Shown here: positions 1-12,945 of the stretch, one piece after another
How positions within the stretch are numbered: position 1 is the stretch's first letter
Layout: every line of letters starts with the position of its first letter
Origin: a virus
Taxonomy: Duplodnaviria > Heunggongvirae > Uroviricota > Caudoviricetes
DNA length: 12,945 nucleotides
Virus record (IMG/VR): IMGVR_UViG_2778261277_000020
Coordinates: 1-12,945 of that record
Strand: one strand, 5' to 3'
The notes under the pieces: generated by a model
What the model was told of the DNA's origin: nothing
Databases searched by the model: none
Seen by the model: only the letters and a program-made list of their open reading frames with translations
Translations under genes and position numbers: made by a program

Positions 1-1026
1 TTACTTGGAATATTTTCTTGGAATATTTTCAGGTAACGGGACATCAAGTGTTGGTGAAACTTTAACCTTCCTGTCATAGATTAGCACTTGCCCTTCGGTT
101 TTGTGACCAGAGAAAAGTTGCTTATCCCGGCTGCTTCCTTCATAGTCTGAAATTCCTTTCGCCTTCAGATCATGAAAGGTGAAGTCGGTTAAAATACCTG
201 AAATTTTGCCTGCGCGATTTCTTGCTTCTACCCACATTTCGTTAAAGCCTTTGTACATATATCGGTTGCCGTATTGATTGCTGATTACATAGGCGGATGT
301 TGGTAACTGTTTTGCTTTTTCGATCGCCGCCTGTAATCGTGGACTCCATGCTTTTATCTGTTTTTTCCCTGTTTTCCCTTGCTGGATAAAGATCCCGTCG
401 TTTCCAATCTGCTCCCATTTCAGCGATAACACATCGGAAACCCTCGCTGCACACAGATAGGCAATTTCCATTGCGATAAAAACAGGAAGAGGTGCAACGC
501 TTAATACTGCCTGGTATTCTTTGTCGGTTACATATCGTTCGCGGTTTTTGGCCTTGAATTTACTTACACCTGCACATGGGTTACCCTTCACGTACCCTCG
601 CTCATACCCCCAACTGTAAACGCGGGACATACTGCTTTTTTCATGGTTGGCTTGCGTTTTACTCTGTTCCCCTCTCTTGTCCATGTATCGACGGATGTGT
701 TCTGGTTTTATGGAATCTGCCGGCACCTTACCGAATACGGCAAGCAACTTTTTTTGATGTTGCAGATAATCTTTTTGTGTTCTTGGACTGAGGTCACTGT
801 AATAGGCGCTGGCGAGGAATTTTCCCCACAAACGACCGAATGTCATTGCGCGATCGCGATTATTTACAGTTTCCTCATACTTTTTCCATAAAGCAGCTAA
901 ACCATCCTTGATGGCGGTTAGTGTGACAGATTCTCTGGATGTTGGTTTCCATACATAACTATATTTATTTGGGTATACATTTGGAGGTAGTTTTTCGTGT
1001 TCAGGATTTTTCCTTCGTCTTCCCAT
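1..1026 (-). CDS. int: Phage integrase, tyrosine recombinase of the lambda Int family (complete, 341 aa)
   Basis: Full-length minus-strand ORF; N-terminus MGRRRK... resembles lambda Int N-terminal arm-binding region; C-terminal part has H/R/Y-containing segments (FHDLKAKG, GHKTEGQVLIYDRK) typical of the catalytic domain; start codon overlaps the xis stop (TAATG). Terminal position in a leftward operon, as in lambdoid phages. Confidence 0.9.
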   Translation of the reverse strand: MGRRRKNPEHEKLPPNVYPNKYSYVWKPTSRESVTLTAIKDGLAALWKKYEETVNNRDRAMTFGRLWGKFLASAYYSDLSPRTQKDYLQHQKKLLAVFGKVPADSIKPEHIRRYMDKRGEQSKTQANHEKSSMSRVYSWGYERGYVKGNPCAGVSKFKAKNRERYVTDKEYQAVLSVAPLPVFIAMEIAYLCAARVSDVLSLKWEQIGNDGIFIQQGKTGKKQIKAWSPRLQAAIEKAKQLPTSAYVISNQYGNRYMYKGFNEMWVEARNRAGKISGILTDFTFHDLKAKGISDYEGSSRDKQLFSGHKTEGQVLIYDRKVKVSPTLDVPLPENIPRKYSK

Positions 1027-1229
1027 TAGATTGCACCAAAATTCGGCTCTACCTCGCGTGGTGGTAAAGTTTTATTGCAGGTAAATAGATCCCGGCTGAC
1101 AATCGGTTTGCCACTACGATTGGTATAGAACGGAAGCCCGTTTTCCGTTAACCATTTTCGCTGGTGGCTTGCATATTTGCAGCCCGTTAATATCAGCAAT
1201 TCATCTTCGGTTAAAAATAAGCTGCTCAT
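1026..1229 (-). CDS. xis: Excisionase-like small DNA-binding protein (67 aa)
   Basis: Small basic ORF immediately upstream of, and translationally coupled to, int (stop/start overlap TAATG at 1024-1028). Position and size fit Xis; family assignment from memory only. Confidence 0.6.
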   Translation of the reverse strand: MSSLFLTEDELLILTGCKYASHQRKWLTENGLPFYTNRSGKPIVSRDLFTCNKTLPPREVEPNFGAI

Positions 1230-1246
1230 AGCTATATCTCATAACC

Positions 1247-1272
1247 GCCGCTAACTATATACGGTTAGCGGC
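1247..1272 (-). other. Perfect 9-bp inverted repeat (GCCGCTAAC / GTTAGCGGC, 8-nt loop) in the exonuclease-xis intergenic leader
   Basis: Read directly from sequence; no U-tract follows on the transcribed (minus) strand, so it is not a canonical intrinsic terminator. Confidence 0.4.
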
Positions 1273-1287
1273 AATTAGGGTTGAACA

Positions 1288-3672
1288 TTAAAAATCAGCC
1301 TGACTCGGGATCAGTTTTTGCCAGATAACTGAAACGTATTTTGCCTGGTAACGGGCGTCATCAAGTGCATTATGGCGCTCACCTTCGAATGGAATAGCCG
1401 TTCTGGCATCGAAGTCTATGGCTTTCCCCAGCTCAACGATTGTGCGTACATCGCGATCGTTGTGGTAGCGCCACGGGCAGGGGATCCCCTGCCGTTCATA
1501 TGAACGGCGTAAAATTACGTTGTCGAAGTTGGCTCCATTTCCCCAGACCTGAACAAAAAATTCACCGGAGTTTTCGGCGATAAATTCCCGCAATTGCAGT
1601 AGTGCATCATCTAACGGGATTTCATCGGTCAGAATGGTAGATTGCGCCTCGCGTGATTGCTTAAGCCACCATTTAATGGTGCCACGATCAATGACTCCGC
1701 CAGCAGTATCCAGATCGATGGTCTTACTAAATTCCGGTCCCATATCTCCGGTTTGCGGATCGAAAAATATTGCACCTATTGAGATAATCGGCGCATCAGG
1801 ATTTTTTCCCATCGTTTCAAGGTCGATCATTAGATGGTCACACGTCCTGCTGGTGGATGTGATAACGTGATGACCATTCACCGTAATTAAGGGATCTGTC
1901 GTCTCGCCAGTTTCACTATCGCTGGCGTGGTCCTGAGCGCTGCCAGCATTCTCCTTGTGTGGATGTTCAGCGCCTTCCATTTCCTCCGGATCTTTTTCCT
2001 GAGCTTCAGCCTGATTTTCTTTATCGAATGTTTCCTGGTATGTTGCGTCGCCCATCACTGCGCCACAATCAGGGCAGTTGCCTCCTCCCGGCTGACCGCA
2101 GGTATCGCAGACTTTCTCCTGCACAGGTTGATTTTCGACGTCGCTATTTTCCGTTTTTTCGACTTCATCTGAGAGGATTTGATGGCCGGGAATCCATTTC
2201 GGATCATTCGGGTCGCTAATCCCTTCAACAAATTCTCCGCGAGAGGCAGCCAGCAACTTATCGGCGTCAGGCTGGCTGACGTTTGCTGCCTGCATAATTT
2301 TGTTTACTTCGTTAGCGGTAACTTTTACCTGATTGACGGGATTTACCTGTGACTGAGCATCCAGCGGCTGCGTGTCCTGATGATGTTCAGTTGCATCCGG
2401 TTCCATTGTTTCAGCCGCTGCCTGTTCACATGCCATTGCGCCAGATGGTTGCGGTTTTTCTGCATCATTTTTTTCTTCTTCTGTTTCTTGCCCGGCAGCC
2501 AGCTCGCGGTTTATTTCTTCCAGAATATCTTTTTCCGGTGTATGTCGGGCAGCCGTGAGTGTTTCCTGGCTGGGGTTCTCGTGATCAGTCTCCGTTAAAT
2601 GGGCGTTGATATACCCCTGAAGGCGTCCCGGGTAGTGATAAAATTCAGGGTGTGCGCTTCGGATAAGTGCAAAAATAGCGGCGCGAGAGTAGTCCAGGAT
2701 ACCCGGGGTTGAGCGAAGTGCTGCTGACCACTCCCTGAACGGACTTTCTTTCTTCCGGACGATTTCTTTTGCGCGGCGATAAACGCTGCCAGGAATGTCA
2801 TAAATATTAAAATCCATCGGAAGCGTGGCTGCTGCAATCTCCAGATCCAGTGTATCGAGGGTGTGTACTAAATCCGGATTACGATCGGTTTTGTTTCCGC
2901 CTCCGGCATTTGCACCGGAAGCCGTACGGGTGATACGCGAAACACGATTTCCTTTCATCCACTCTTTTGTCAGCAGGCCGCGATCGGTGTAGTCAGCGTC
3001 CAGGTATGCTTCGAAAAAAGCAGTCATTAATCCCAGACTGGAATTAACGGGATTAGGGAAAACTTTGTCAGTGTCGCGAACCAGTTTGTGGTGGTCGCGA
3101 AGTTCCAGTGGGTCGAGCAGGCTGGTTTTGTGCGAAATAGCCAGGGCAGTAACTGCCGGTAGCTCTTCAGCCCGAGCGATATGTAATGCCTGAAGTTCAT
3201 CTCTTGAAACGTGTGTTACTGGTTTTTCGCTGCCGTGTTGAGCAAGCCAACGGATTGCCACCTCCTGACCGGAAACTGGCAGGAGCATGCTCTCCTCAAT
3301 CTCCGTCATGTCTTCGCCGTTAACATTGGTATTTTCGGTGCTGGCTGGTTTGTTCTGCACAGAGGGAGATGGCGCGGTGAATACCATTGTGATGCCATCT
3401 TCACCGCCTTTTTCATAGCGGTTACAGAATTCGGTATCAAACACGCCTTCTGGTGGAAGGTCATTCACAACAGGCAAATGGACGCGAACAGGTTTTTTAA
3501 AGTCCTCTTCGTCGTAACCAGCATCATCCATTGCGACATTACCGCGGGAAACTGCAACAGATAATTTTTTTGCTGTAGTCCAGTAAAAACCTCCTTTAAT
3601 ACCGAGACGTTTTCTGACTTTGTCATTTTTGGCTTCGTAATGGAGTGCAATGTCTTGTTTGTCAGTGCTCAT
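1288..3672 (-). CDS. Exodeoxyribonuclease VIII-like protein (794 aa): RecE-like N-terminal/central region fused to a C-terminal DEDDh (DnaQ-like) 3'-5' exonuclease domain
   Basis: ATG at 3672 with GAGG 9 nt upstream. Central segments ([57 protein letters not shown], Cys-x2-Cys...Cys-x2-Cys [17 protein letters not shown]) match my memory of the E. coli Rac RecE N-terminal region. The C-terminal ~180 aa carry DEDDh motifs (MIDLETMG; [10 protein letters not shown]; HNALDDARY). Confidence 0.8.
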
Positions 3673-3707
3673 TGTTTTTAACCTCAGCTAAGATTAAAAT
3701 TCCTCCG

Positions 3708-3767
3708 GAATGATGAATAAATGTCCCAGGTTCATCATTCTGGCCTGCACTGAGTGCAGGCCTTTTT
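3708..3767 (+). terminator. Two adjacent hairpins; the second (GGCCTGCAC...GTGCAGGCC followed by T5 at 3763-3767) has plus-strand intrinsic-terminator geometry
   Basis: Hairpin A: 10-bp perfect stem GAATGATGAA / TTCATCATTC (3708-3740). Hairpin B: GC-rich stem 3742-3762 then TTTTT. The T-run is on the plus strand, antisense to the leftward operon. Confidence 0.4.
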
Positions 3768-3772
3768 ACCAT

Positions 3773-4048
3773 TCAGATTTCATCTTTTAGTTCTGTCCCA
3801 ATCAGAGAGGCCAGATACATGTCTTTTTTTTCTGCAGGCAGATTCTTAATGATATGCACCAGACACATTTTTTTAACACCATCGTTAAGTGTTTTAACAT
3901 TTCCTGAGAAACCGTAGATATCAACCACAGTGAATGGGGTTTCTTTATTTTCTGTCTTAATTACGTAGCCAATACGCTTTTCTTCAAGATTAACCTCGTG
4001 AACAATATTATCAGCAGTAACAGTAGTGACTTCATAACTGGTAATCAT
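3773..4048 (-). CDS. Hypothetical protein (91 aa)
   Basis: ATG at 4048 preceded by AGGAGAAAAAT (strong SD); ORF track start at 4096 is an upstream non-ATG extension. No recognisable motif. Confidence 0.55.
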   Translation of the reverse strand: MITSYEVTTVTADNIVHEVNLEEKRIGYVIKTENKETPFTVVDIYGFSGNVKTLNDGVKKMCLVHIIKNLPAEKKDMYLASLIGTELKDEI

Positions 4049-4132
4049 ATTTTTCTCCTTAATTAAGGTTGAGTGAATCCCTGCCATTGCTGGCATATAA
4101 GAATGAAACCGTACATTTGTGACGTAGCTGCT

Positions 4133-4324
4133 TTAAATACTTGTCGTGACTTCTTTATTATCCTGACGAATAACTTTATCAACCTGATAACAGTTACCTG
4201 GAATTTTCTGTTCTTCTGCAGCAGCCATGCATTCTTTCATGGAGTTGTATATTCCTGTAACTATATCAACCGGTTCACCGGAAACAAGAAAAACAGTCAT
4301 AACAAGCGCGAATACTGTATTCAT
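4133..4324 (-). CDS. Small protein (63 aa) with hydrophobic N-terminus (signal peptide or single TM helix), two Cys
   Basis: ATG at 4324 with GGAGA 5 nt upstream; start overlaps stop of upstream gene (TGATG). N-terminus MNTVFALVMTVFLVSG is hydrophobic. Confidence 0.5.
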   Translation of the reverse strand: MNTVFALVMTVFLVSGEPVDIVTGIYNSMKECMAAAEEQKIPGNCYQVDKVIRQDNKEVTTSI

Positions 4325-4509
4325 CAGTGTCTCCAGAAAATACCAAGTCTGAGAAGAGCCATTCTGGAAAGTATGGAATTATCATTGAGAAAATAAGGCT
4401 CATATTTCCTCATATTAATGGCATCTTCAGTAAACTCACGGTTACTGATTTGAACACCAATTTCAAAACAACCTTCAGATGTATTGATGTTGGGTAATAA
4501 CGTTTCCAT
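4324..4509 (-). CDS. Hypothetical protein (61 aa)
   Basis: ATG at 4509 with GAGGAA 8 nt upstream; lies 14 nt downstream of the rha stop; same-strand operon context. Confidence 0.45.
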   Translation of the reverse strand: METLLPNINTSEGCFEIGVQISNREFTEDAINMRKYEPYFLNDNSILSRMALLRLGIFWRH

Positions 4510-4523
4510 TATCGTTTCCTCGA

Positions 4524-5078
4524 TCAATGGATATTAAGTAACTGCTCCACGGTCATATTTTTAATTACGTCCCTGTTCACAAGCGTCCATCCCTGTTTCT
4601 CCAGATAAAAGCGGAAGGTATCCAGGGTGCAGACCATTGCACCATCAGGAACGGTTTCAGTGAATTTGATGTTGCCGTGTTCGTCGAGACGGATAACCAG
4701 GGTACGTCCGTCCCCGTGAATCATTTTGTCGGGAGACGGGGCGTTATTCTGGCGCAGTTCTTTCTCCATGCGATCGAACTCAGCGATGTAGGCTTCTTTA
4801 AATGCAGCGGCTTTTTTGCCGGTGAAGCCCATCACCAGGAAAACGAAGCCGTTTTTGGTGATTTGGTACATAGGGAGTTTGCGTCCTGTTGAGTCGGTGT
4901 ATTCGCTCGACACAAAATTGTGCTCAGTGAATTTTGCTGAACAGTCCAGATTGCGAATTTTATCCAACACTCGTTCGTGGCGTTTACCAAAGAACTCGGC
5001 GATCGCAACAGACGTAGTGACAGCGCGACCATTTTCGATGGTTACATCAGGGTGATAAATGGTAGGGGTAGTAGCCAT
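4524..5078 (-). CDS. rha: Rha-family phage regulatory protein (184 aa)
   Basis: N-terminal ~100 aa (IENGRAVTTSVAIAEFFGKRHERVLDKIRNLDCS...MYQITKNGFVFLVMGFTGKKAAAFKEAYIAEF) match the Rha domain as I recall it. ATG at 5078 with GGAGG 8 nt upstream. The 282-aa ORF in the track is an in-frame upstream extension that contains a terminator hairpin. Confidence 0.8.
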   Translation of the reverse strand: MATTPTIYHPDVTIENGRAVTTSVAIAEFFGKRHERVLDKIRNLDCSAKFTEHNFVSSEYTDSTGRKLPMYQITKNGFVFLVMGFTGKKAAAFKEAYIAEFDRMEKELRQNNAPSPDKMIHGDGRTLVIRLDEHGNIKFTETVPDGAMVCTLDTFRFYLEKQGWTLVNRDVIKNMTVEQLLNIH

Positions 5079-5244
5079 GATGGCAGCCTCCGCGATGAAT
5101 TTAATTAACTCACCACCAGAGGTGCTAATCTCATGGGTGGTGAGACGCACAGGGTTAGCACTACCGGTCATCACGGAACCCGGCCAGCCTTGCGGCTGCC
5201 CTGCACGCCTCACCATAATGCGAATGTGGCTGTGCTTAACGCAT

Positions 5245-5267
5245 AAAAAAACCGCCTGAGCGCGGTT
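5245..5267 (-). terminator. Minus-strand intrinsic-terminator-like hairpin (6-bp stem AACCGC / GCGGTT, 6-nt loop) followed by U7
   Basis: Plus-strand sequence AAAAAAACCGCCTGAGCGCGGTT at 5245-5267; on the minus strand this is stem-loop plus TTTTTTT. Confidence 0.5.
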
Positions 5268-5948
5268 ATGCGCCGTGATTGACTTCGGGGTGCTAATCCC
5301 GGCACCCGTTTTATGAGGTGCAGATGAACTATAATTCCACCCGTACTGGTTTTCAATAGCTACATTCAACATTTTCTCTTACCCTTCATCACCGAAGTGA
5401 ACTTTGTTGATGCAGTGCCTGGTGCCTCCAGGTGACGTTAACCAGTTAACAATTAACGCCGGAATACAGAAGTATGCCCGTTACGCCCCGTAAAAGACCA
5501 CTTTACGGTTTTAACTGTTCCGCGTGCGCTTAGCCGCATTCACCGCATCACAAAATTCACTTTAAAAAGGGTGGCAGAGCAGTCACGGAGTAGAACTGAT
5601 GCCACCAAAGACTACACATGGGTATTGTGGCGGGGCTGTCACTTAAGCGTATGGTCAACCTGACAACCCGGTGCATTTTCTGGAGCAATGGAGGAAACCC
5701 CAGCCATACTTACCGCCGCGCCATTTCGCGGATTGCCACAACCGGAAGCGCACGTTCGAGGAAATCTAACGACAAGCCTTCTAAGGGAAAGAGCTTCGCC
5801 GTACGCTTTCGCGTTATGCCCTGACTTTTCAGGGAAATATCCTTTCAGTAAACTGTCAGTACCGGATTCTTATCCGTGTCCGGCGCACGACCGCACGTGA
5901 CAGCGTGTTGGTCTCCATTTTTAACCCAGAACCTCAATGGAGGATAAA

Positions 5949-6158
5949 ATGCCAAACAAAAAAAGAAATCCGCTTATTGAAAAACAGATTGAATGCCTGG
6001 TAAATCAACTCAGGCAATCAGGGTTATTAAAAACTCATTCAGAGTTGAGGCTCACAGAATCAGCATTCGACGATAAATTAAATAATGTCCTTTATAATGG
6101 CATTATTGATTTTAATCGTTCTGTTGGTCGCCGCGGCCCTGCTGGTGTTTCCTTATAA
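5949..6158 (+). CDS. Hypothetical small protein (69 aa), AT-rich
   Basis: ATG at 5949 with GGAGGA at 5939-5944; convergent with the next gene, stop codons back to back (TAA 6156-6158 / TAA on minus at 6159-6161). Confidence 0.5.
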   Translation: MPNKKRNPLIEKQIECLVNQLRQSGLLKTHSELRLTESAFDDKLNNVLYNGIIDFNRSVGRRGPAGVSL

Positions 6159-6809
6159 TTACCAGTCAATCCAGAGCGGACCGTGTTCAGCGTAAATATA
6201 ACTGTACACATCCAGATTATATTTGTGGTCTGTTAAGAACAGGCCGCAAATACATGCCGAAGCTTCCAGGGCAGCGGCTCTGTTACTGAATAACCATGTA
6301 GCAACATTCCAGCGTTTTTCTGCATCCCAGTCTTTCTCAAGGCCTGATACCATGAAGAAACCGTTAGTGTTGCCATCAAATAATTCTGTTTCCAGATTTT
6401 TAAGCAATGCCTGATGGACTCTTGCCAGGTATTCCGCCGGAATTTCGCCACGAATTCTGATGAGATTGTCATAAACAAACATGTTCCCCGCATATGGCGA
6501 TTTTTCTTTCTTGTTTTTTAAACCAGCATCATGAGCAAACTGATCAATTTCTTCTTCCGTTGGTTTCGTATTGATGTTTTGCGCTGTCGTTTCTGCAATT
6601 TTATTTGCCACACTCTCTGAGTCGTGTTTATTTATAGACGCACAGAAATACAATCCGGTAAACGCATCGCGCACATTACGAGCCATATTATCAGTGTCTT
6701 TTTTCGTTACCGATTCCAATTCAAGTTCGTTCAGACGATGACGAAGTGTGTGTGCTGCAATCTCTTGGATTGAAGGAGGTAAATCTTTAAATTCCATCGT
6801 CAACCTCAT
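6159..6809 (-). CDS. Hypothetical protein (216 aa from ATG 6809; 212 aa if ATG 6797), AT-rich, no TM segment
   Basis: ATG at 6809 overlaps the stop of the upstream 50-aa gene (TGATG); the alternative ATG at 6797 has GAGG 7 nt upstream. No motif I can name. Confidence 0.65.
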   Translation of the reverse strand: MRLTMEFKDLPPSIQEIAAHTLRHRLNELELESVTKKDTDNMARNVRDAFTGLYFCASINKHDSESVANKIAETTAQNINTKPTEEEIDQFAHDAGLKNKKEKSPYAGNMFVYDNLIRIRGEIPAEYLARVHQALLKNLETELFDGNTNGFFMVSGLEKDWDAEKRWNVATWLFSNRAAALEASACICGLFLTDHKYNLDVYSYIYAEHGPLWIDW

Positions 6810-6961
6810 CAGTCAGTGTTTCTGGCTAACCAGCGACGCGCGCCAGCTGCGGTTTTAAACGTTTTGCTTCTGGTATACGTCATCGCGGTAAACGTGCCGT
6901 CCAGGTTGGGGAATACTCCGCATACCAGAGATTCGTTGTTGCCAAGATTGAGCGTATCCAT
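6809..6961 (-). CDS. Hypothetical small protein (50 aa) with basic C-terminus
   Basis: ATG at 6961 with GAGG 5 nt upstream; first gene leftward of the OL-like palindrome; stop overlaps next start. Confidence 0.45.
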   Translation of the reverse strand: MDTLNLGNNESLVCGVFPNLDGTFTAMTYTRSKTFKTAAGARRWLARNTD

Positions 6962-7139
6962 GTTGACCTCATTTCCCCTTAACGCCGGGTAGCGGAACAA
7001 AAACCTGCTGCATAGTTATTAAAGTTGAACCCTGCCGTCATGTTCTTACGCCTCGGGCTGGCTACTTAACCCCTGACCACTGCCTGGTAACTCGAAGTAT
7101 TGCCTGGCGTTCTGTGGGCGGGGTGGGTTGGTGAATACA

Positions 7140-7186
7140 ATCTACAATTAAAAACTGTTTTATGTCAACAGTTTTTAATTGTAGAT
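7140..7186. promoter_or_regulatory. 47-bp perfect palindrome (20-bp arms ATCTACAATTAAAAACTGTT, 7-bp spacer): candidate OL-like operator
   Basis: Read directly; shares the half-site TACAAT(A/T)AAAAACTGT with the palindrome at 8178-8218; lies between the terminator after parE and the first leftward gene. Confidence 0.6.
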
Positions 7187-7192
7187 CTGAGC

Positions 7193-7215
7193 AAAAAAAA
7201 TCCCTCGAAAGAGGG
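7193..7215 (-). terminator. Minus-strand intrinsic-terminator-like hairpin (CCCTC-GAAA-GAGGG) followed by U8, downstream of parE
   Basis: Plus strand AAAAAAAATCCCTCGAAAGAGGG at 7193-7215; on the minus strand this is stem-loop then 8 U; about 20 nt past the parE stop (7235). Confidence 0.5.
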
Positions 7216-7234
7216 AGTATGAAAATTGTTCAGC

Positions 7235-7522
7235 TCAGATAGAGGAGGGAAATTGTCGGCGAGCATGTATCACGCTTACAATCTCAATGCTTGAAGCAGC
7301 TACTCTGTACAGGATTATGTAGTTAGGGTGGGTCACTATCTCTCTCACCCCTGAAACCCGTTCGCTTAGTGGATATAGGTACGGATGCTCAGATAGAGGT
7401 AATACCGATGTTTCAATGCGTATTTTTAGTCTGCGCGCTGCCGGTGGGTTCTCCTTGGCGATGTAAGTTATGATCTGACGCAAATCATCGCGAGCAGATG
7501 GTAGCCATAAAATGGGTAACAT
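7235..7522 (-). CDS. parE: ParE/RelE-family toxin (95 aa)
   Basis: Sequence LRQIITYIAKENPPAARRL...IVSVIHARRQFP is typical of ParE toxins; start overlaps the antitoxin stop (TAATG). Confidence 0.85.
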   Translation of the reverse strand: MLPILWLPSARDDLRQIITYIAKENPPAARRLKIRIETSVLPLSEHPYLYPLSERVSGVREIVTHPNYIILYRVAASSIEIVSVIHARRQFPSSI

Positions 7523-7713
7523 TACTCGCTCCTGTTAGTTACAACGATTTGAGCAATAAGATTTTCCATTTCAGCCATTACCTCGTCATGTGGAATTGCG
7601 GGACGAGGGTCTGCAAGGCTCGACGCTACTTTAGCGCGCAACCATTCGTTGTAACTGTTTTCTTGTTCGATAGTTTCGAATTCTGAAACTATCGGAGAAA
7701 GGGCTGTACCCAT
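7522..7713 (-). CDS. paaA: PaaA2-like antitoxin (63 aa)
   Basis: SEFETIEQENSYNEWLRAKVASSLADPRPAIPHDEV matches my memory of PaaA2 from the E. coli O157 paaR2-paaA2-parE2 module; GAGGAG SD 7 nt upstream of ATG 7713. Confidence 0.75.
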   Translation of the reverse strand: MGTALSPIVSEFETIEQENSYNEWLRAKVASSLADPRPAIPHDEVMAEMENLIAQIVVTNRSE

Positions 7714-7740
7714 GGCATAACTCCTCTTCTTGTACTGTGG

Positions 7741-8142
7741 TCACGCCCGGCGGCTTTTTTGTGCCGCCAGCCACCGGGCAATGGTTTCTTCCATTGATTT
7801 TTTCTTGTCTTTGATTTCTTGAAGCATTTTTTCTTGGTCTTCCTCAGGGAACGCACTAAAAGCCTGGAGCAGTTCGCGTTGGCGAGGACCAATTTTCATC
7901 GTGTCAGGGGTGAAAATTTGCTCCCCCTCTTCAGGAGGCAATAAAAACCAATGCAATGGATGCCCTGTAACCTCAACCAGTTTATCCAAACTTGAGGCTT
8001 TAGGTGTAGCCTTACCGCTGACCCATTGTTGAACAGTTTGTTGTGTCACACCAATTCTACGGGCAAGCTCAGCCTGGCTCCATCCAGTTTCCTGAAGAAG
8101 CTTGCTGATTCTGTACATAGATACTTCTAGGGCGCTCATCAT
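7741..8142 (-). CDS. paaR: PaaR2-like / CI-like HTH (XRE family) transcriptional repressor (133 aa)
   Basis: N-terminal HTH (WSQAELARRIGVTQQTVQQWVSG); first gene of the three-gene cassette; divergent from a cro-like gene across a palindromic operator; no SD before the ATG (possibly leaderless). Confidence 0.75.
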   Translation of the reverse strand: MMSALEVSMYRISKLLQETGWSQAELARRIGVTQQTVQQWVSGKATPKASSLDKLVEVTGHPLHWFLLPPEEGEQIFTPDTMKIGPRQRELLQAFSAFPEEDQEKMLQEIKDKKKSMEETIARWLAAQKSRRA

Positions 8143-8177
8143 TATTCAATTTTACAGGTAAATACTGTTAAAAGCAT

Positions 8178-8218
8178 TACAATAAAAAACTGTTGATCAA
8201 ATACAGTTTTTTATTGTA
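8178..8218. promoter_or_regulatory. 41-bp perfect palindrome (16-bp arms TACAATAAAAAACTGT, 9-bp spacer TGATCAAAT) in the divergent paaR / ydaS control region: candidate OR-like operator
   Basis: Read directly; sits between paaR start (8142) and ydaS start (8251); a TATAGT -10-like hexamer at 8228-8233 lies just downstream on the plus strand. Confidence 0.6.
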
Positions 8219-8250
8219 GCCTTTGCCTATAGTTTTTAGAGGAGGGGAAA

Positions 8251-8523
8251 ATGCTAGATAGCACTCGCGAAAAAATTAGGCAGAAATACACTCAGGCTGA
8301 AATAGGTCGTTATATGGGGGTCGCCCAACAGACCGTTTGGCAATGGTTTAGCTTTGGCGTCCCCCCAAAGCAGGTAATTCCGCTATGTCAGCTAATGAAG
8401 TGGGAAGTTACCCCGCATGAAATTCGCCCAGACATTTACCCTAACCCAACTGACGGTTTACCTGTTGGATGTAAGGCTAACACACCAAATGCACCGGAGA
8501 TGATTCATGAAAATCAAGCATGA
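8251..8523 (+). CDS. ydaS: Cro-like HTH protein of the YdaS family (90 aa)
   Basis: Strong SD GAGGAGGGG then ATG 8251; HTH AEIGRYMGVAQQTVWQW and the EIRPDI motif I associate with YdaS/Cro-like proteins; divergent from the repressor gene. Confidence 0.75.
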   Translation: MLDSTREKIRQKYTQAEIGRYMGVAQQTVWQWFSFGVPPKQVIPLCQLMKWEVTPHEIRPDIYPNPTDGLPVGCKANTPNAPEMIHENQA

Positions 8524-8932
8524 ACATATCCGCATGGCGATGAATGCCTGGGCGCATCCGGACGGCGAAAAAGTACCGGCTGCGAAAATTACCAAAGCGT
8601 ATTTCGAGCTGGGAATGACGTTCCCGGAACTGTATGACGACAGCCATCCGGAAGCCCTGGCTCGCAATACTCAGAAAATTTTCCGCTGGGTGGAGAAAGA
8701 CACCCCTGATGCGGTTAAAAAAATTCAGGCGTTGTTACCAGCTATCGAAAAAGCAATGCCACCTCTGCTGGTGGCCCGAATGCGCAGCCATAGCTCAGCC
8801 TATTTTCGGGAACTGGTGGAGACGCGGGAACGACTGGTGAGAGACGCTGATGATTTTGTCGCAGTGGCGATCGCTGGTTTCAACCAGATGAATCGTGGTG
8901 GCCCTGCAGGAAATATTGTGGCTGTGCATTGA
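8507..8932 (+). CDS. ydaT: YdaT-like protein (CII functional analogue), 141 aa
   Basis: Starts MKIKHEHI..., as I recall for Rac / CP-933P YdaT; overlaps ydaS by 17 nt; GGAGA SD 7 nt upstream. Confidence 0.75.
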   Translation: MKIKHEHIRMAMNAWAHPDGEKVPAAKITKAYFELGMTFPELYDDSHPEALARNTQKIFRWVEKDTPDAVKKIQALLPAIEKAMPPLLVARMRSHSSAYFRELVETRERLVRDADDFVAVAIAGFNQMNRGGPAGNIVAVH

Positions 8933-9003
8933 CTCGCAATATTCATACCGGATCACTTCCGGCAATTTGTGAGTAAAAAGATTCGGTATCAGAAGAGGTG
9001 AGT

Positions 9004-10044
9004 ATGGCTAACGCCTGGCTCAGATTATGGCATGACATGCCAAATGATCCTAAGTGGCGAACAATTTCCAGGGTGTCAGGACAGCCAATCGCAACAGTGA
9101 TGGCTGTGTATATCCACCTTCTGGTGAGCGCGTCACGAAATGTCACGACATGTCACGGCGTGTCACTACGTGGTCACATTGATGTCACGACGGAGGATTT
9201 AGCAAGTGCGCTTGATGTGACGGAAGAGGTAATTGATTCAATTTTACAGGCAATGCAGGGGCGGGTACTTGATGGAGATTTAATCTCTGGATGGGAAAAA
9301 CGCCAGGTACTGAAAGAGGACAATGGCAACGTTTCACAAACCGCGAAATCCCCGGCAGAGCGCAAGAGAGCGCAGCGCGAGAGGGAAAAATTACGAAAAC
9401 AGAATGAGGGGGGGCATGACGAGTCACGCATATGTCACGACATGTCACGACGAGTCACGACAGATAAAGATACAGATAAAGAATTAAACCCCACACATAA
9501 CGCGCGCGTGCGCGAGAGTGCTCCGACCAGTGAGTCGAATGGCGTGCCGTTGCAGGCAGCGGAACCTGATTACCTGGAAGGCCTGAGCGAACCCATCGGG
9601 AAATTTCCGATGACTGATGGCTGGCATCCGTCGCCGGATTTTCGACGGCGGGCAGCTCTGTGGGGAGTGGCTCTGCCGGAGCCGGAATTTACACCAGCTG
9701 AACTTGCCGCCTTCCGGGACTACTGGGCAGCGGAGGGTAAAGTTTTCACACAGGTTCAGTGGGAGCAGAAATTCGCCCGTCACGTAAATCACGTCAGGGC
9801 GCAGGTTAAACCAGTCAGCAAGGGGGGGAACCATGCAGCAGCACCAGGTGGCACCGCATCACGGGCAGTTCAGGAAATTCGGGCAGCACGTGAGCAGTGG
9901 GAACGTGAAAACGGATTTATCAGCGACGGAAACGGCGTGGAAGCTGTGGGAACTCATGGGGGAGGTTTATTCGAACCGCTGGACCCAGAAGAACGGGGCC
10001 GCACCTTCGAAGCTCTGGATTGCACAGATTGGTGCGATGACTGA
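9004..10044 (+). CDS. Replication initiator, lambda O-like (YdaU / DUF1376-type N-terminal domain), 346 aa
   Basis: ATG 9004 with AGAGG 5 nt upstream; N-terminus [36 protein letters not shown]; two iteron clusters inside the gene, as for lambda ori within O. Confidence 0.7.
9132..9190 (+). repeat. Iteron cluster 1: six direct repeats with GTCAC core at about 10-11-bp spacing
   Basis: CGTCACGAAA TGTCACGACA TGTCACGGCG TGTCACTACG TGGTCACATT GATGTCACGA read directly. Confidence 0.6.
9423..9482 (+). repeat. Iteron cluster 2 (four (T/A)GTCACGAC repeats, 10-bp spacing) followed by AT-rich direct repeat CAGATAAAGA x2: probable origin core
   Basis: GAGTCACGCA TATGTCACGA CATGTCACGA CGAGTCACGA CAGATAAAGATACAGATAAAGA read directly; iterons plus adjacent AT-rich tract is the classical lambdoid ori layout. 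Confidence 0.6.
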
Positions 10045-10510
10045 GCAGCAAATCCGACAGGTCTGCCGCCAGTGCATGGACCGCTGCCGGGCGGGTGAAA
10101 CATGGCCTCCGGACCTGGCTGAGTTTGTGGCGCTGATTTCGGAGAGTGGGGCAAATCCATTCGGTCTGACGGTGGATGCTGTGATGGAGGAGTACCGCCG
10201 CTGGCGCAACGACTCCTGGCGATACGACGGAAGCGATAAATACCCGTGGTCTCAGCCTGTGCTGTATCACATTTGCCTCGAGATGCGGGCAAAAGGGGTT
10301 GAGCGTCAGATGACCGAAGGGGAGTTAAAACGACTTGCAGAACGGCAACTGGCGAAATGGGCAAAACATGTTGGTATGGGCCTGAGTGTTCCGCCTGTCC
10401 GGCGACAACTGGCTGCACCAAAACGCCCGTCGGGACCAACGCCAGTTGAGTTGCTGAAACAGGAGTATGAACGCCGGAAAGCGGCTGGTTTTGTTGGAGT
10501 TGAGAAGTAA
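9833..10510 (+). CDS. Replication protein, lambda P-like (helicase loader), about 225 aa; start uncertain
   Basis: C-terminal half ([40 protein letters not shown]...[16 protein letters not shown]) resembles lambda P as I recall it. ATG 9833 has a G-rich SD (AGGGGGGG, 4-nt spacer) but implies a 212-nt out-of-frame overlap with the O-like gene; alternative starts at 9956 or 10037. Confidence 0.6.
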
Positions 10511-10532
10511 TTTTTACCGGGAGGAAATTTTA

Positions 10533-11303
10533 ATGGAAACTGTTTTTGATGCACTGAAAGCAATGGGAAAAGCCACGTCGGTGGAACTGGCTACGCGACT
10601 TGATATCAGTCGTGAAGAAGTGCTGAACGAGCTGTGGGAACTCAAAAGAAATGGCGTCGTTGATAAAACTGGTCACACCTGGTTTCTGGCTGGCGAAGGT
10701 GAATCCCGGGTAACCGAAGAGCGGCCAGTAAAATCTGAAGCACAGGATATGCTGACCGGGGAGGTCGAACAAAAAGTTACCGCAGACATGATGATTGAGT
10801 TTATCGGTCAGGAGGGGGCTAAAACGTGTGAGGAACTGGCGGGTAAGTTCGGTGTCAGTACTCGCAAAGTTGCTTCCACGCTGGCTGTGGTAACCGCAAC
10901 GGGGCGGCTGGCACGCGTTAATCAGAACGGTAAATTTCGTTACTGCATGCCGGGCGATAAGTTACCAGCAGAGCCGAAATCCGTGCCGGTAACGGAAAAT
11001 GATGGTAAGGCCTTTCCTCAGCCAGCAGGTGTTGCGTTACCAGTACAGGAAGGGGCAACACAGGAAGATATAAAAACAGAAACTGTAGCGGACATTGTGC
11101 AATCGTTGCCATCGTTTACTGAAACGCGAGCGGATGACCTGGTTTTACCATCGCTGCATATGGCAAACCGCGAATTGCGTCGGGCGAAAAATCATGTTCA
11201 GAAGTGGGGGCGTGTCTGCGCCGCGCTGCGGGAGCTGAACAAGCACCGGGATATTGTTCGACATATTACGGATTCTTCCCGCCGTGTTGCATCGGAAAAG
11301 TGA
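10533..11303 (+). CDS. Hypothetical protein (256 aa) with two winged-helix-like segments
   Basis: ATG 10533 with GGGAGG 8 nt upstream; two segments with wHTH-like pattern (ATSVELATRLDISREEVLNELWELKRNGVV; KTCEELAGKFGVSTRKVASTLAVVTATGRLARV). Confidence 0.6.
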   Translation: METVFDALKAMGKATSVELATRLDISREEVLNELWELKRNGVVDKTGHTWFLAGEGESRVTEERPVKSEAQDMLTGEVEQKVTADMMIEFIGQEGAKTCEELAGKFGVSTRKVASTLAVVTATGRLARVNQNGKFRYCMPGDKLPAEPKSVPVTENDGKAFPQPAGVALPVQEGATQEDIKTETVADIVQSLPSFTETRADDLVLPSLHMANRELRRAKNHVQKWGRVCAALRELNKHRDIVRHITDSSRRVASEK

Positions 11304-11318
11304 TTGCCGGAGGCGCTT

Positions 11319-11741
11319 ATGGCAAAAGTATTTACACAAGAAGAGCGGGAAAAAATTAAAGGGCAGGTGGTTGAACTCGTGCGCCAGAGCGGTCGTGAGA
11401 CGTTACGGCAACTGGAAGCCAAGACAGGTGCGACAAGATATCTGATGAGCGTTCTCGCCAGAGAGCTGGCTGCCAGTGGCGATGTATACAACTCTGGTTA
11501 CGGGTTATTCCCGTCTGAACAGGCGCGTAAGGACTGGCAAAATGCCCGTAAAAAGCTCTCAAGGGCAAAGCTGAAGAAACCATCTGCGGTTGATCCGGAC
11601 CTTATCTGGTCATTACCAGACGGAGAAATACGTCGCTACGACAGTCGCCTAAACATAATCTGTCGCGAGTGCCGGAAGAGCGAAGTTATGCAGCGTGTAC
11701 TGGCTTTCTATCAGGGTAATTTTCAGGAGGCGGTACTGTGA
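11319..11741 (+). CDS. Hypothetical protein (140 aa)
   Basis: ATG 11319 with GGAGG 5 nt upstream; no recognised motif. Confidence 0.55.
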   Translation: MAKVFTQEEREKIKGQVVELVRQSGRETLRQLEAKTGATRYLMSVLARELAASGDVYNSGYGLFPSEQARKDWQNARKKLSRAKLKKPSAVDPDLIWSLPDGEIRRYDSRLNIICRECRKSEVMQRVLAFYQGNFQEAVL

Positions 11742-11798
11742 GTGAAATTAGCTATCAGGCTTCAATTACCGCTGGCATTCGCATCAAAGGAGAGGAGC

Positions 11799-12155
11799 AT
11801 GGAAATAAAACCAGAAGATGAGTTAAGCAATATCGTTTTATTTCCGGTAAAAGAGGATGACCCTCGTAATCAGGTTAATTTTCTTTATGAGCCATCGGAA
11901 AGACCATATTGCCATCACGCTTCTGTCCGGGTTGACGAAAAAGAGCGTCAGGTCCGCTGTAAAATCTGCGGTGCAGTTGTGGAGCCATTTGACTGGATGC
12001 TCTCTGTGGCGAAAAGAGAAACCAGACTGGCAGATGATGTAAGGCTATTGCGCCAGGAGGAACAGGAAAGACGGAAAAATATAGAAAAGTTAATTCAGAT
12101 TGAGCGTAACGCGAAAGCGCGGATACGCAGGGTGACAAAATCCAGAACTGAATAA
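11799..12155 (+). CDS. Hypothetical protein (118 aa) with Cys/His cluster (CHH...CKIC), possible zinc ribbon
   Basis: ATG 11799 with AAGGAGAGG upstream; C-terminal half charged and helical-looking. Confidence 0.55.
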   Translation: MEIKPEDELSNIVLFPVKEDDPRNQVNFLYEPSERPYCHHASVRVDEKERQVRCKICGAVVEPFDWMLSVAKRETRLADDVRLLRQEEQERRKNIEKLIQIERNAKARIRRVTKSRTE

Positions 12156-12250
12156 TTAAATTTAGCACTGTTAAAAATTCGATCCTTAACCGGAGGGATT
12201 TCTGCACCCTCAGAACATCAGGAGGCCGCCCGAAAGGGCGGTAACAAATA

Positions 12251-12727
12251 ATGCAAGAAATCAAAGAAAATATCAGGCAACAGCTTTACGGGTTTTATAT
12301 TGCTTATGATTTGTGGCTGAAGAACGGGGCAAAACCCGGCGGAGTGTTTTCTCAAAATTATGGTTTATGCGCCAATCTTTTCGATTATCTCACATTAATT
12401 GGTACCCCCTGTGAGGCAGCGCTGGAGCAATTACACGCTGATTTCAGAAGTGCCGGGCTGAATGAGGCGTTGCCGTTTAACGAGGGTAAAGAGCATTACC
12501 ATGAAGAAAGAGGGCACAACATGTGCCATATGAATCCGGCACGAGTGGCGTGGGTCAGGGCGCAGACAGGGCAGCCAGCGCCGGAAGGACTGGTTAAAGC
12601 GGTGCGCTTCTATGAACAGGTTAAGCGTGAAAATCCGCCAGTCGAAACCGGAGCATGGAAAGACGCTGTTGACTGGGTTCTCGAAGAGGCTTGTCAGGCT
12701 GTAAACATTCGCATCAAAGGAGAGTGA
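12251..12727 (+). CDS. Hypothetical protein (158 aa)
   Basis: Long ORF with consistent coding look; GGAGG lies 25 nt upstream, separated from the ATG by a GNRA-loop hairpin. Confidence 0.6.
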   Translation: MQEIKENIRQQLYGFYIAYDLWLKNGAKPGGVFSQNYGLCANLFDYLTLIGTPCEAALEQLHADFRSAGLNEALPFNEGKEHYHEERGHNMCHMNPARVAWVRAQTGQPAPEGLVKAVRFYEQVKRENPPVETGAWKDAVDWVLEEACQAVNIRIKGE

Positions 12728-12729
12728 GA

Positions 12730-12945
12730 ATGCAAATTTCACCGGTTACTCTTCGTGTTGCGAAGGCGTTTATATCCAGACATCACCGACACAATAAACC
12801 ACCTGTTGGGCATAAATTCAGCATTGGTCTGATAAATGATGCCGGAGAATTGATAGGTGTGGCGACAGCTGGTCGACCTGTTGCACGACATTTGGACGAT
12901 GGATTAACGCTTGAAGTAAATCGCACATGTACCACAGGAGAACGC
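12730..12945 (+). CDS. Hypothetical protein, 5' part only (runs off the right edge)
   Basis: ATG 12730 preceded by AAAGGAGAG; open frame to the window end (MQISPVTLRVAKAFISRHHRHNKPPVGHKFSIGLINDAGELIGVATAGRPVARH...). Not in the ORF track because no stop lies within the window. Confidence 0.45.
   Translation, partial: MQISPVTLRVAKAFISRHHRHNKPPVGHKFSIGLINDAGELIGVATAGRPVARHLDDGLTLEVNRTCTTGER

Follow-up and report, generated by a model that had tools for sequence, protein, structure and literature searches.

The gene starting at position 12251 was found to be preceded by a Shine-Dalgarno (SD) sequence and a GNRA-loop hairpin, which together constitute the 3' end of an approximately 95-nt intergenic cassette that precedes at least seven unrelated gene families in prophages of the E. 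coli group. We interpret this arrangement, with a probability of roughly 0.6, as a constitutive split SD that is bridged by the hairpin and carried on a portable cassette doubling as a recombination linker. The comparative basis for the bridged SD consists of the 6-9-nt spacing in gene families devoid of their own SD, the ordinary SD-like sequences found in cassette-free homologues, the invariant GGAG, and a layout resembling that of the T4 gene 38 start region. The analyzed DNA, hereafter termed the window, is the whole stretch of 12,945 nt corresponding to positions 1 to 12,945 of the IMG/VR record IMGVR_UViG_2778261277_000020.

Genomic context and organization of the start region

Pfam scans of the main ORFs identified the window as a Rac-like E. 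coli prophage, which encodes an integrase, a RecE-like exonuclease, a Rha/Ash protein, a PaaA2-ParE toxin-antitoxin pair, an HTH repressor facing YdaS-/YdaT-like genes, and DnaT-domain, DUF1627, and DUF977 proteins. At the site under study, the gene for a small zinc-ribbon-like protein of 118 aa (11799-12155, plus strand, as annotated by PGAP) is followed by the intergenic region with the cassette and then by an ATG-initiated 158-codon ORF (12251-12727, plus strand; hereafter the 12251 gene), whose 158-aa product showed no Pfam match and belonged only to PHROG families of unknown function.

The 5' edge of the cassette is formed by the last codons and the stop codon (TAA, 12153-12155) of the upstream gene, at CTGAATAATTAAATT; megablast and the alignment of upstream contexts placed the onset of homology to many otherwise unrelated contexts at approximately 12148 (query position 49). 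From there an AT-rich part, which is absent in truncated cassettes, extends to 12192 on the plus strand. Direct reading of the sequence bore out the anatomy given in a preliminary description of this DNA, namely GGAGG, a 6-bp stem with a GAAA loop, 9 nt, and ATG at 12251. The SD sequence AGGAGG (12220-12225, plus strand; GGAGG at 12221-12225), complementary to CCUCCU of the 16S rRNA 3' end, directly abuts the hairpin (12226-12241, plus strand), in which CCGCCC (12226-12231) and GGGCGG (12236-12241) form six perfect G-C/C-G pairs around the GNRA tetraloop GAAA (12232-12235), and a seventh pair between G12225 and U12242 is possible. The hairpin is followed by an A-rich 9-nt spacer, TAACAAATA (12242-12250, plus strand), and the start codon ATG (12251-12253, plus strand). 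The spacer contains no SD-like motif (none of GGAG, GAGG, AGGA, and AAGG), and thus offers no alternative SD at a canonical distance from this ATG. Starts located further upstream were excluded by the in-frame TAA at 12242-12244, and both the PGAP annotation of identical DNA in E. coli CE0021a and the PHROG profile alignments agreed with the start at 12251.

The linear distance between AGGAGG and this ATG was 25 nt, where anything above about 15 nt was taken as too long for direct use and approximately 5-11 nt as the functional range; with the hairpin left out, the distance was 9 nt. Both spacing figures of the preliminary description were thereby confirmed.

Several further features of the region were noted. 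For the upstream gene, two starts come into consideration, GTG 11742 (137 aa, behind AGGAGG) and ATG 11799 (118 aa, behind GGAGAGGAG), of which PGAP picks the latter, while the list of ORFs also permits the former. An 18-mer, ATTCGCATCAAAGGAGAG, occurs twice in the window (11777-11794 and 12707-12724; zero occurrences expected by chance), and both copies are situated at the 3' ends of ORFs, whose frames translate the motif as ..IRIKGE; each copy provides the GGAG for the ATG of the next gene. At 11777, the IRIKGE frame is that of the long GTG-start ORF, and the annotated upstream gene begins just after it at ATG 11799. This 18-mer looks like a second conserved gene-boundary motif of the region, equipped with an ordinary SD.

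Elsewhere in the window, three Rfam RNAs lie in a row on the minus strand, C4 antisense RNA (5133-5220), isrK (5245-5321), and DicF (5569-5620), adjoining the Rha/Ash-family gene (4524-5372). The RecE-like protein (794 aa; 1288-3672, minus strand) has an exonuclease VIII region at its N-terminus and an Rv2179c-like 3'-5' exoribonuclease domain (E = 1e-66) at its C-terminus, which is an unusual pairing. The type II PaaA2-ParE toxin-antitoxin pair (7235-7713, minus strand) is located directly beside the prophage repressor gene (7741-8142).

Structure prediction and chance expectation

The 16-mer hairpin at 12226-12241 was predicted to fold with -12.4 kcal/mol, and all six stem pairs displayed probabilities of 0.99-1.0 irrespective of whether 79, 145, or 221 nt of context were folded. 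A 54-nt piece containing the hairpin gave z = -4.3 relative to its own shuffles. From 12243 onward, the predicted unpaired probability was mostly above 0.9 (0.83-1.0), whereas the SD itself was predicted to be partly paired with upstream CCUC or UCCU (P 0.4-0.8).

The preliminary description had also pointed to a second hairpin just upstream, formed by GAGGG (12193-12197) and CCCTC (12207-12211) around a 9-nt loop (12193-12211, plus strand; -5.8 kcal/mol). These sequences are indeed present, but in the context of the window their pairing probability was only 0.00-0.01, and the hairpin was predicted only when the isolated 59-nt element was folded as an alignment. Instead, CCUC at 12208-12211 can pair with GGAG of the SD (P 0.4-0.8 in the window context). 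Since truncated cassettes, described below, lack both the upstream hairpin and CCUC, these elements appear dispensable; according to the folding model, the weak pairing of CCUC/UCCU with the SD, absent from the truncated cassettes, could damp initiation somewhat. The loop of the upstream hairpin contains GAUUUCU (12197-12203), perfectly complementary to AGAAAUC (12257-12263), which lies within codons 3-5 of the 12251 gene; this pairing is part of the minimum-free-energy fold. As it is broken in close homologues (AGACAUC) and missing in the other downstream families, it is probably due to chance.

In 400 first-order Markov simulations, perfect G+C-rich hairpins of at least 6 bp occurred approximately 1.1 times per window. 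The joint arrangement, defined as an SD motif at most 7 nt upstream of a perfect G+C-rich hairpin with an ATG 4-11 nt downstream, was in contrast expected only 0.0075 times per window. The 21-mer of the SD-hairpin site was present once in the window and in none of 200 shuffles. Searches against Rfam yielded no match at the site at the gathering score, and at permissive thresholds only two chance-level hits (E = 7-9) within 12100-12320, neither of them at the site. Promoter and terminator scans, the latter covering both strands of 11600-12945, likewise detected nothing at the site. An intrinsic terminator was rejected, given that the hairpin is followed by UAACAAAUA with no U-tract on either strand and that the site is not listed by the terminator scan.

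Distribution of the cassette among prophages

A megablast search with 12100-12400 detected the cassette in 2433 of 5426 complete E. coli genomes (approximately 45%), with up to eight copies per genome and some 3677 copies altogether, while the whole query was found in only 20 of them. In most genomes the homology stopped at query position 144, corresponding to position 12243 of the window, 2 nt past the hairpin, whereas the upstream edge of homology varied among several distinct start points. The mosaic junction thereby coincides with the start of the spacer (12242-12250). Among 123 distinct contexts of 460 nt, 10 upstream and 13 downstream sequence clusters occurred in 39 combinations, and the cassette had the same orientation as its flanking genes in every case examined. 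As a short conserved sequence at a gene boundary whose flanks are unrelated across genomes, the cassette has the properties by which boundary (linker) sequences are recognized.

Individual phages illustrate this reassortment. In the phages vB_EcoS-640R1 and -689R5, the same AGGAGG-hairpin is followed by TAGTTAA and then by another gene starting with ATG; in Stx2-type phages, ArgO145 among them, the unit is located in the early-left region ahead of a DUF4014 gene, and in other contexts it precedes a Q-family antiterminator. The preliminary description had presented the arrangement as that of the 12251 gene; it belongs instead to a portable cassette, placed at a mosaic junction and shared by at least seven gene families.

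The collections searched yielded no divergent relatives beyond the E. coli group. A distant blastn search of 50,697 phage records retrieved only Escherichia-type phages and one record labelled Actinobacillus. When 185,579 species genomes were scanned with a degenerate pattern, genuine copies were confined to E. coli, Shigella, Citrobacter braakii, and one contig, labelled as a Collinsella MAG, which carries an E. coli-type cassette sequence. The remaining hits of the pattern scan were unrelated G+C-rich hairpins, and six hits of a 16-mer anchor without the hairpin were chance matches within unrelated sequence. When related prophage loci totalling 1.7 Mb were scanned, the cassette was the only SD-hairpin-ATG design detected.

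The possibility that the cassette is itself translated was rejected. Two open frames traverse it, but neither contains ATG, GTG, or TTG; furthermore, the first hairpin's loop shows single-base indels, and the stops that overlap the ATG are inconsistent between families.

Genes located downstream of the cassette

To survey the downstream genes, two scans with anchors placed outside the hairpin were carried out on the public viral contigs of IMG/VR, which provided 166 instances. An ATG opening an ORF was located 6-11 nt past the hairpin in 153 of them; the remaining 13 were contig ends, decayed copies, deletions, or convergent-gene junctions. The ORFs belonged to at least seven unrelated families, and the spacer was specific to each downstream gene family. 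The distance from the hairpin to the ATG was 6 nt for DUF4014, 7 nt for DUF7167, 8 nt for a 43-aa ORF, 8-9 nt for two Ea22-like N-termini, 9 nt for the 12251 gene, and 11 nt for the Q-antiterminator family. The last is the only family having its own GGAG within the spacer (TGGAGATAATA), and the families with 6-9 nt have no SD of their own. A stretch of 6-9 nt is too short to accommodate an independent SD together with its spacer, and these genes therefore either use the SD of the cassette or have none.

Homologues lacking the cassette helped to distinguish between these two possibilities. In cassette-free homologues of the 12251 gene, the DUF4014 gene, and the Ea22-like N-terminus, the ATG was in every case preceded, at a distance of 4-9 nt, by an ordinary SD-like sequence, namely AGGAGAG, GGGGGAG, GAAGAGG, GGGAG, AAGGAGAG, or AAGGA. 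The respective start regions read cacAGGAGAGattcacaATG (with ten extra codons), ggtaaGGGGGAGtgagATG, or gcGAAGAGGtattaagaaATG for the 12251 gene, aatGGGAGtgatATG or caaAGGAGAGtgatATG for DUF4014, and tatAAGGAaaactgaaATG for the Ea22-like N-terminus. The presence of ordinary SD-like sequences in the cassette-free members of three families favors the use of the cassette SD over initiation with no SD.

A truncated form of the cassette delimited the unit further. In this form a different upstream gene, ending in ...CACAACGATTAA, is followed by TGTC, (A/G)GGAGG, the hairpin, the spacer, and the ATG, and it was found ahead of three different downstream families. As the truncated form retains just (A/G)GGAGG and the hairpin, the SD and the hairpin are considered to travel as a unit.

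Five copies have no start codon after the cassette. Three of them (L145, L170, and L238, the last from Citrobacter braakii) face a convergently transcribed gene, and two of these three have an AAAA loop; in the other two (L216 and L232), the DNA past the cassette is unrelated and apparently that of the host, which would fit a deletion. In all five, the rightward unit ends with the hairpin. A different deviation was observed in Escherichia phage Rac (MN652886; L173, 1545-1610), where the start of the downstream DUF7167 gene is ATA instead of ATG. There, ATTTCTG in the first hairpin's loop is replaced by ATGCCTG, creating an in-frame ATG directly after GGAGGG, which the depositors annotate as the start, so that the ORF reads through the hairpin. 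This change may represent either the decay of a cryptic prophage or a shift of the start site.

Sequence diversity of the cassette

The GGAG core was invariant in all 49 distinct cassette variants, while the flanking bases varied (A, C, or G before it, and G, A, or T after it). Of 117 distinct contexts, 66 had the identical hairpin, and a stability of -7 kcal/mol or better was kept in about 90%. The approximately 10% of copies with weakened stems included CCGCCAGAAAGAGCGG (-4.6 kcal/mol), which occurs in three contexts whose downstream ORF is intact. The loop variants GGCA, UAAA, and AAAA were tolerated.

Covariation in homologues had been put forward in the preliminary description as a check on the hairpin. 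When it was applied to both hairpins and the CCUC-GGAG pairing in the 49 variants, no significant signal was obtained: the values did not exceed those of shuffle controls, with more than 300 of 500 shuffles reaching the observed ones, and the covariation term of RNAalifold was -0.09 kcal/mol. The cassette copies are about 96% identical, and the test thus had no statistical power. Of the stem cells, 94.9% were paired, with one compensatory G-C to A-U change (L135), 21 G-U cells, and 15 broken cells. Neither did a comparison of the observed variants with all possible mutants reveal excess stability of the stem, as the observed single mutants averaged -9.7 kcal/mol versus -9.6 kcal/mol for all possible transitions, and the observed double mutants were weaker than the null. 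Changes of C to U in the 5' arm, which preserve pairing in the RNA of the plus strand only, were commoner than changes of G to A in the 3' arm, a pattern that without a tree is inseparable from mutation bias. Since all copies reside in closely related prophage DNA of the E. coli group, the instances are not independent, and the conservation could partly reflect recent spread.

Proposed mechanism and alternative explanations

In the mechanism that we propose, AGGAGG at 12220-12225 would be the working SD of the 12251 gene, and the GNRA hairpin between SD and AUG would be folded essentially all the time. CCUCCU of the 30S subunit would pair with AGGAGG directly abutting the stem, which may allow coaxial stacking of the two helices. 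On A-form geometry, the spacer should emerge at the stem base, displaced by about one helix width from the ordinary exit of the SD helix, and the AUG would arrive at the P site with an apparent spacing of roughly 9-12 nt. That is, because the folded hairpin would join the 3' end of the SD to the 9-nt spacer, the 25-nt gap would behave as one of roughly 9-12 nt. From the comparison of sequences, we infer that the 30S subunit uses AGGAGG across the folded hairpin and that the module has been kept for that reason. By recombination among Rac-like, lambdoid, and Stx prophages of E. coli, the SD-hairpin module of about 23 nt would become joined to different genes, and any gene landing 6-9 nt past the hairpin would be translated from the cassette SD. 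As it precedes at least seven unrelated genes, the unit probably acts as a swappable translation start signal of the kind demonstrated for two T4 genes, and the cassette almost certainly serves as a recombination linker as well.

The preliminary description had suggested structure-dependent translational control. The comparative data support one part of that suggestion, the use of the SD across the hairpin, while regulation is not indicated: given the high predicted stability (-12.4 kcal/mol, GNRA loop), the hairpin looks like a fixed constitutive bridge rather than a switch.

A first alternative holds that the hairpin is an mRNA stabilizer or processing barrier of the upstream module that would block 3'-5' exonucleases, as hairpins of the REP type do within operons, that AGGAGG is incidental, and that the downstream genes initiate without an SD on A-rich, unstructured leaders. 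The hairpin is very stable, and in many contexts the homology spans the upstream gene through the hairpin and ends right after it; in the copies L145, L170, and L238, moreover, the cassette ends a transcription unit facing a convergent gene with no ATG behind it. SD-independent initiation is also possible in principle, because both the spacer and the early codons are A-rich and unstructured. A stabilizer, however, would explain neither why an invariant GGAG always abuts the stem, nor why the truncated unit starts exactly at the SD and travels with different downstream genes, nor why the same families display ordinary SD-like sequences whenever the cassette is missing. We therefore regard this explanation as unlikely.

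The same reassortment data could be read in terms of DNA only, with the element serving purely as a recombination linker and the RNA hairpin having no translational role. Linker or boundary sequences are an established idea for lambdoid phages, and the extensive reassortment on both sides, the junction immediately past the hairpin, and the second boundary motif ATTCGCATCAAAGGAGAG at two gene ends in the window all accord with it. A pure linker nevertheless needs neither an SD abutting a perfect hairpin, nor an ATG at 6-9 nt, nor the loss of SDs from the downstream genes, and we consider this restricted version quite improbable. A linker role as such is compatible with the bridged SD and probably true alongside it.

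It is less probable still that the hairpin is a regulated operator, bound by a translational repressor or by an antitermination factor of the N type recognizing a boxB-like GNRA hairpin. GNRA hairpins beside start regions are common protein operators, and the core GCCC-GAAA-GGGC resembles lambda boxB, the sequence of which is GCCCUGAAAAAGGGC; but the loop here is a true tetraloop versus the pentaloop of boxB, the site is not beside an early promoter, no Rfam match was obtained, and the loops GGCA, UAAA, and AAAA are tolerated. Moreover, the Pfam scans of the main ORFs of the window gave no hit named as an N-type antiterminator. Finally, a chance juxtaposition or a real start at another codon, for which only the general frequency of small hairpins speaks, is hardly credible in view of the joint expectation of 0.0075 per window, the recurrence of the identical unit ahead of many genes, the in-frame TAA at 12242, and the agreement of PGAP and PHROG profile alignments on ATG 12251.

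Should the hairpin-bridged SD be correct, this design would exist also in temperate phages, as a reusable module in approximately 45% of complete E. coli genomes, and it would explain how SD-less genes are expressed after mosaic recombination. It would in addition supply a rule for annotating apparently SD-less starts and a compact natural part for context-independent translation. The finding ties together two questions commonly considered separately, the position of phage mosaic junctions and the expression of the newly joined genes. More speculatively, the 23-nt SD-hairpin might be a plug-and-play ribosome-binding module that is at once a crossover point and, through its rigid hairpin, a shield of the SD from the incoming coding sequence, a proposal that we advance tentatively and with considerable doubt. 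If so, shuffled accessory genes would be translated at once, without bringing or evolving an SD of their own, and nearly half of the complete E. coli genomes would possess, in this module, a natural analogue of synthetic translation insulators.

Comparison with known systems

To our knowledge, documented hairpin-bridged split ribosome-binding sites number only a handful, essentially those of T4 genes 38 and 25, and have been viewed as single-gene curiosities. In a full-text search, the hairpin sequence described here was absent from the papers covered, and the T4 and thrS cases were the only split ribosome-binding sites retrieved from that literature.

Among hairpins of other functions, lambda nut boxB shares with the prophage hairpin a G+C stem, a GNRA-type loop, and a similar core, but differs in having a pentaloop instead of a tetraloop, and neither a boxA nor the genomic position of a nut site is found here. 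A lambda-type nut site was rejected on the basis of the tetraloop, the location of the site approximately 4 kb downstream of the immunity region, and the lack of an N-type Pfam hit in the main ORFs. Intrinsic terminators and REP-like stabilizers are likewise G+C-rich intergenic hairpins, whereas the prophage unit contains an SD and is followed by a start codon at a fixed short distance. The prophage anti-sRNAs of Tree et al., which are located downstream of PR', were found to be unrelated to the hairpin unit. In E. coli thrS, the 'split ribosome binding site' of Sacerdot et al. is a case in which the ribosome accommodates a folded hairpin without melting it (discussed in PMC3936740); that hairpin lies between an upstream single-stranded region and the SD and belongs to an autoregulatory operator, whereas the hairpin of the prophage unit lies between the SD and the AUG.

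Like the lambdoid boundary sequences, the cassette is short and conserved and has non-homologous genes on both sides in many combinations. The classic boundary idea is concerned with DNA recombination only, whereas the cassette is, in addition, built like a complete ribosome-binding module. On lambdoid linker sequences, Juhala et al. (2000) is cited in PMC4104026.

The closest counterparts are the split initiation regions of T4 (Nivinskas et al., 1999; Malys and Nivinskas, 2009; both as reviewed in PMC3014915). The distance separating SD from AUG, 22 nt in gene 38 and 27 nt in gene 25, is shortened by an intervening structure to 5 and 11 nt, respectively, and mutations destabilizing the stem lower initiation (PMC3014915). 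We retrieved both regions for comparison and folded that of gene 38. The gene 38 region reads UAAGGAG-AGGGGC-UUCG-GCCCUU-CUAAAU-AUG, with a hairpin of -14.1 kcal/mol followed by 4-5 nt to the AUG, and the gene 25 region reads GAGG-C-CUCAAAG-AGUU-CUUUGAG-UUACUAUA-AUG; written as RNA, the prophage unit is CAGGAGG-CCGCCC-GAAA-GGGCGG-UAACAAAUA-AUG. In the T4 genes and in the prophage unit alike, the hairpin lies wholly between SD and AUG, with comparable linear (22-27 nt versus 25 nt) and effective (5-11 nt versus 9 nt) distances. The agreement was closest for gene 38, in which the SD likewise abuts an extra-stable tetraloop hairpin that is followed by a short A/U-rich spacer, in agreement with the likeness to a few phage genes suggested in the preliminary description.

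Sequence homology between the T4 regions and the prophage unit is absent, and the resemblance is thus one of analogy and not of common descent. The T4 sites have been proven by mutagenesis, whereas the prophage unit is known here from its sequence and predicted folding. Furthermore, each T4 site is fixed at a single gene junction and is inherited vertically within the T-even phages, whereas the prophage unit is portable, belongs to temperate phages, would serve at least seven unrelated genes, and is located at a recombination junction. The bridged SD is known from T4; what would be new here is its occurrence as a shared mobile module at a mosaic boundary.
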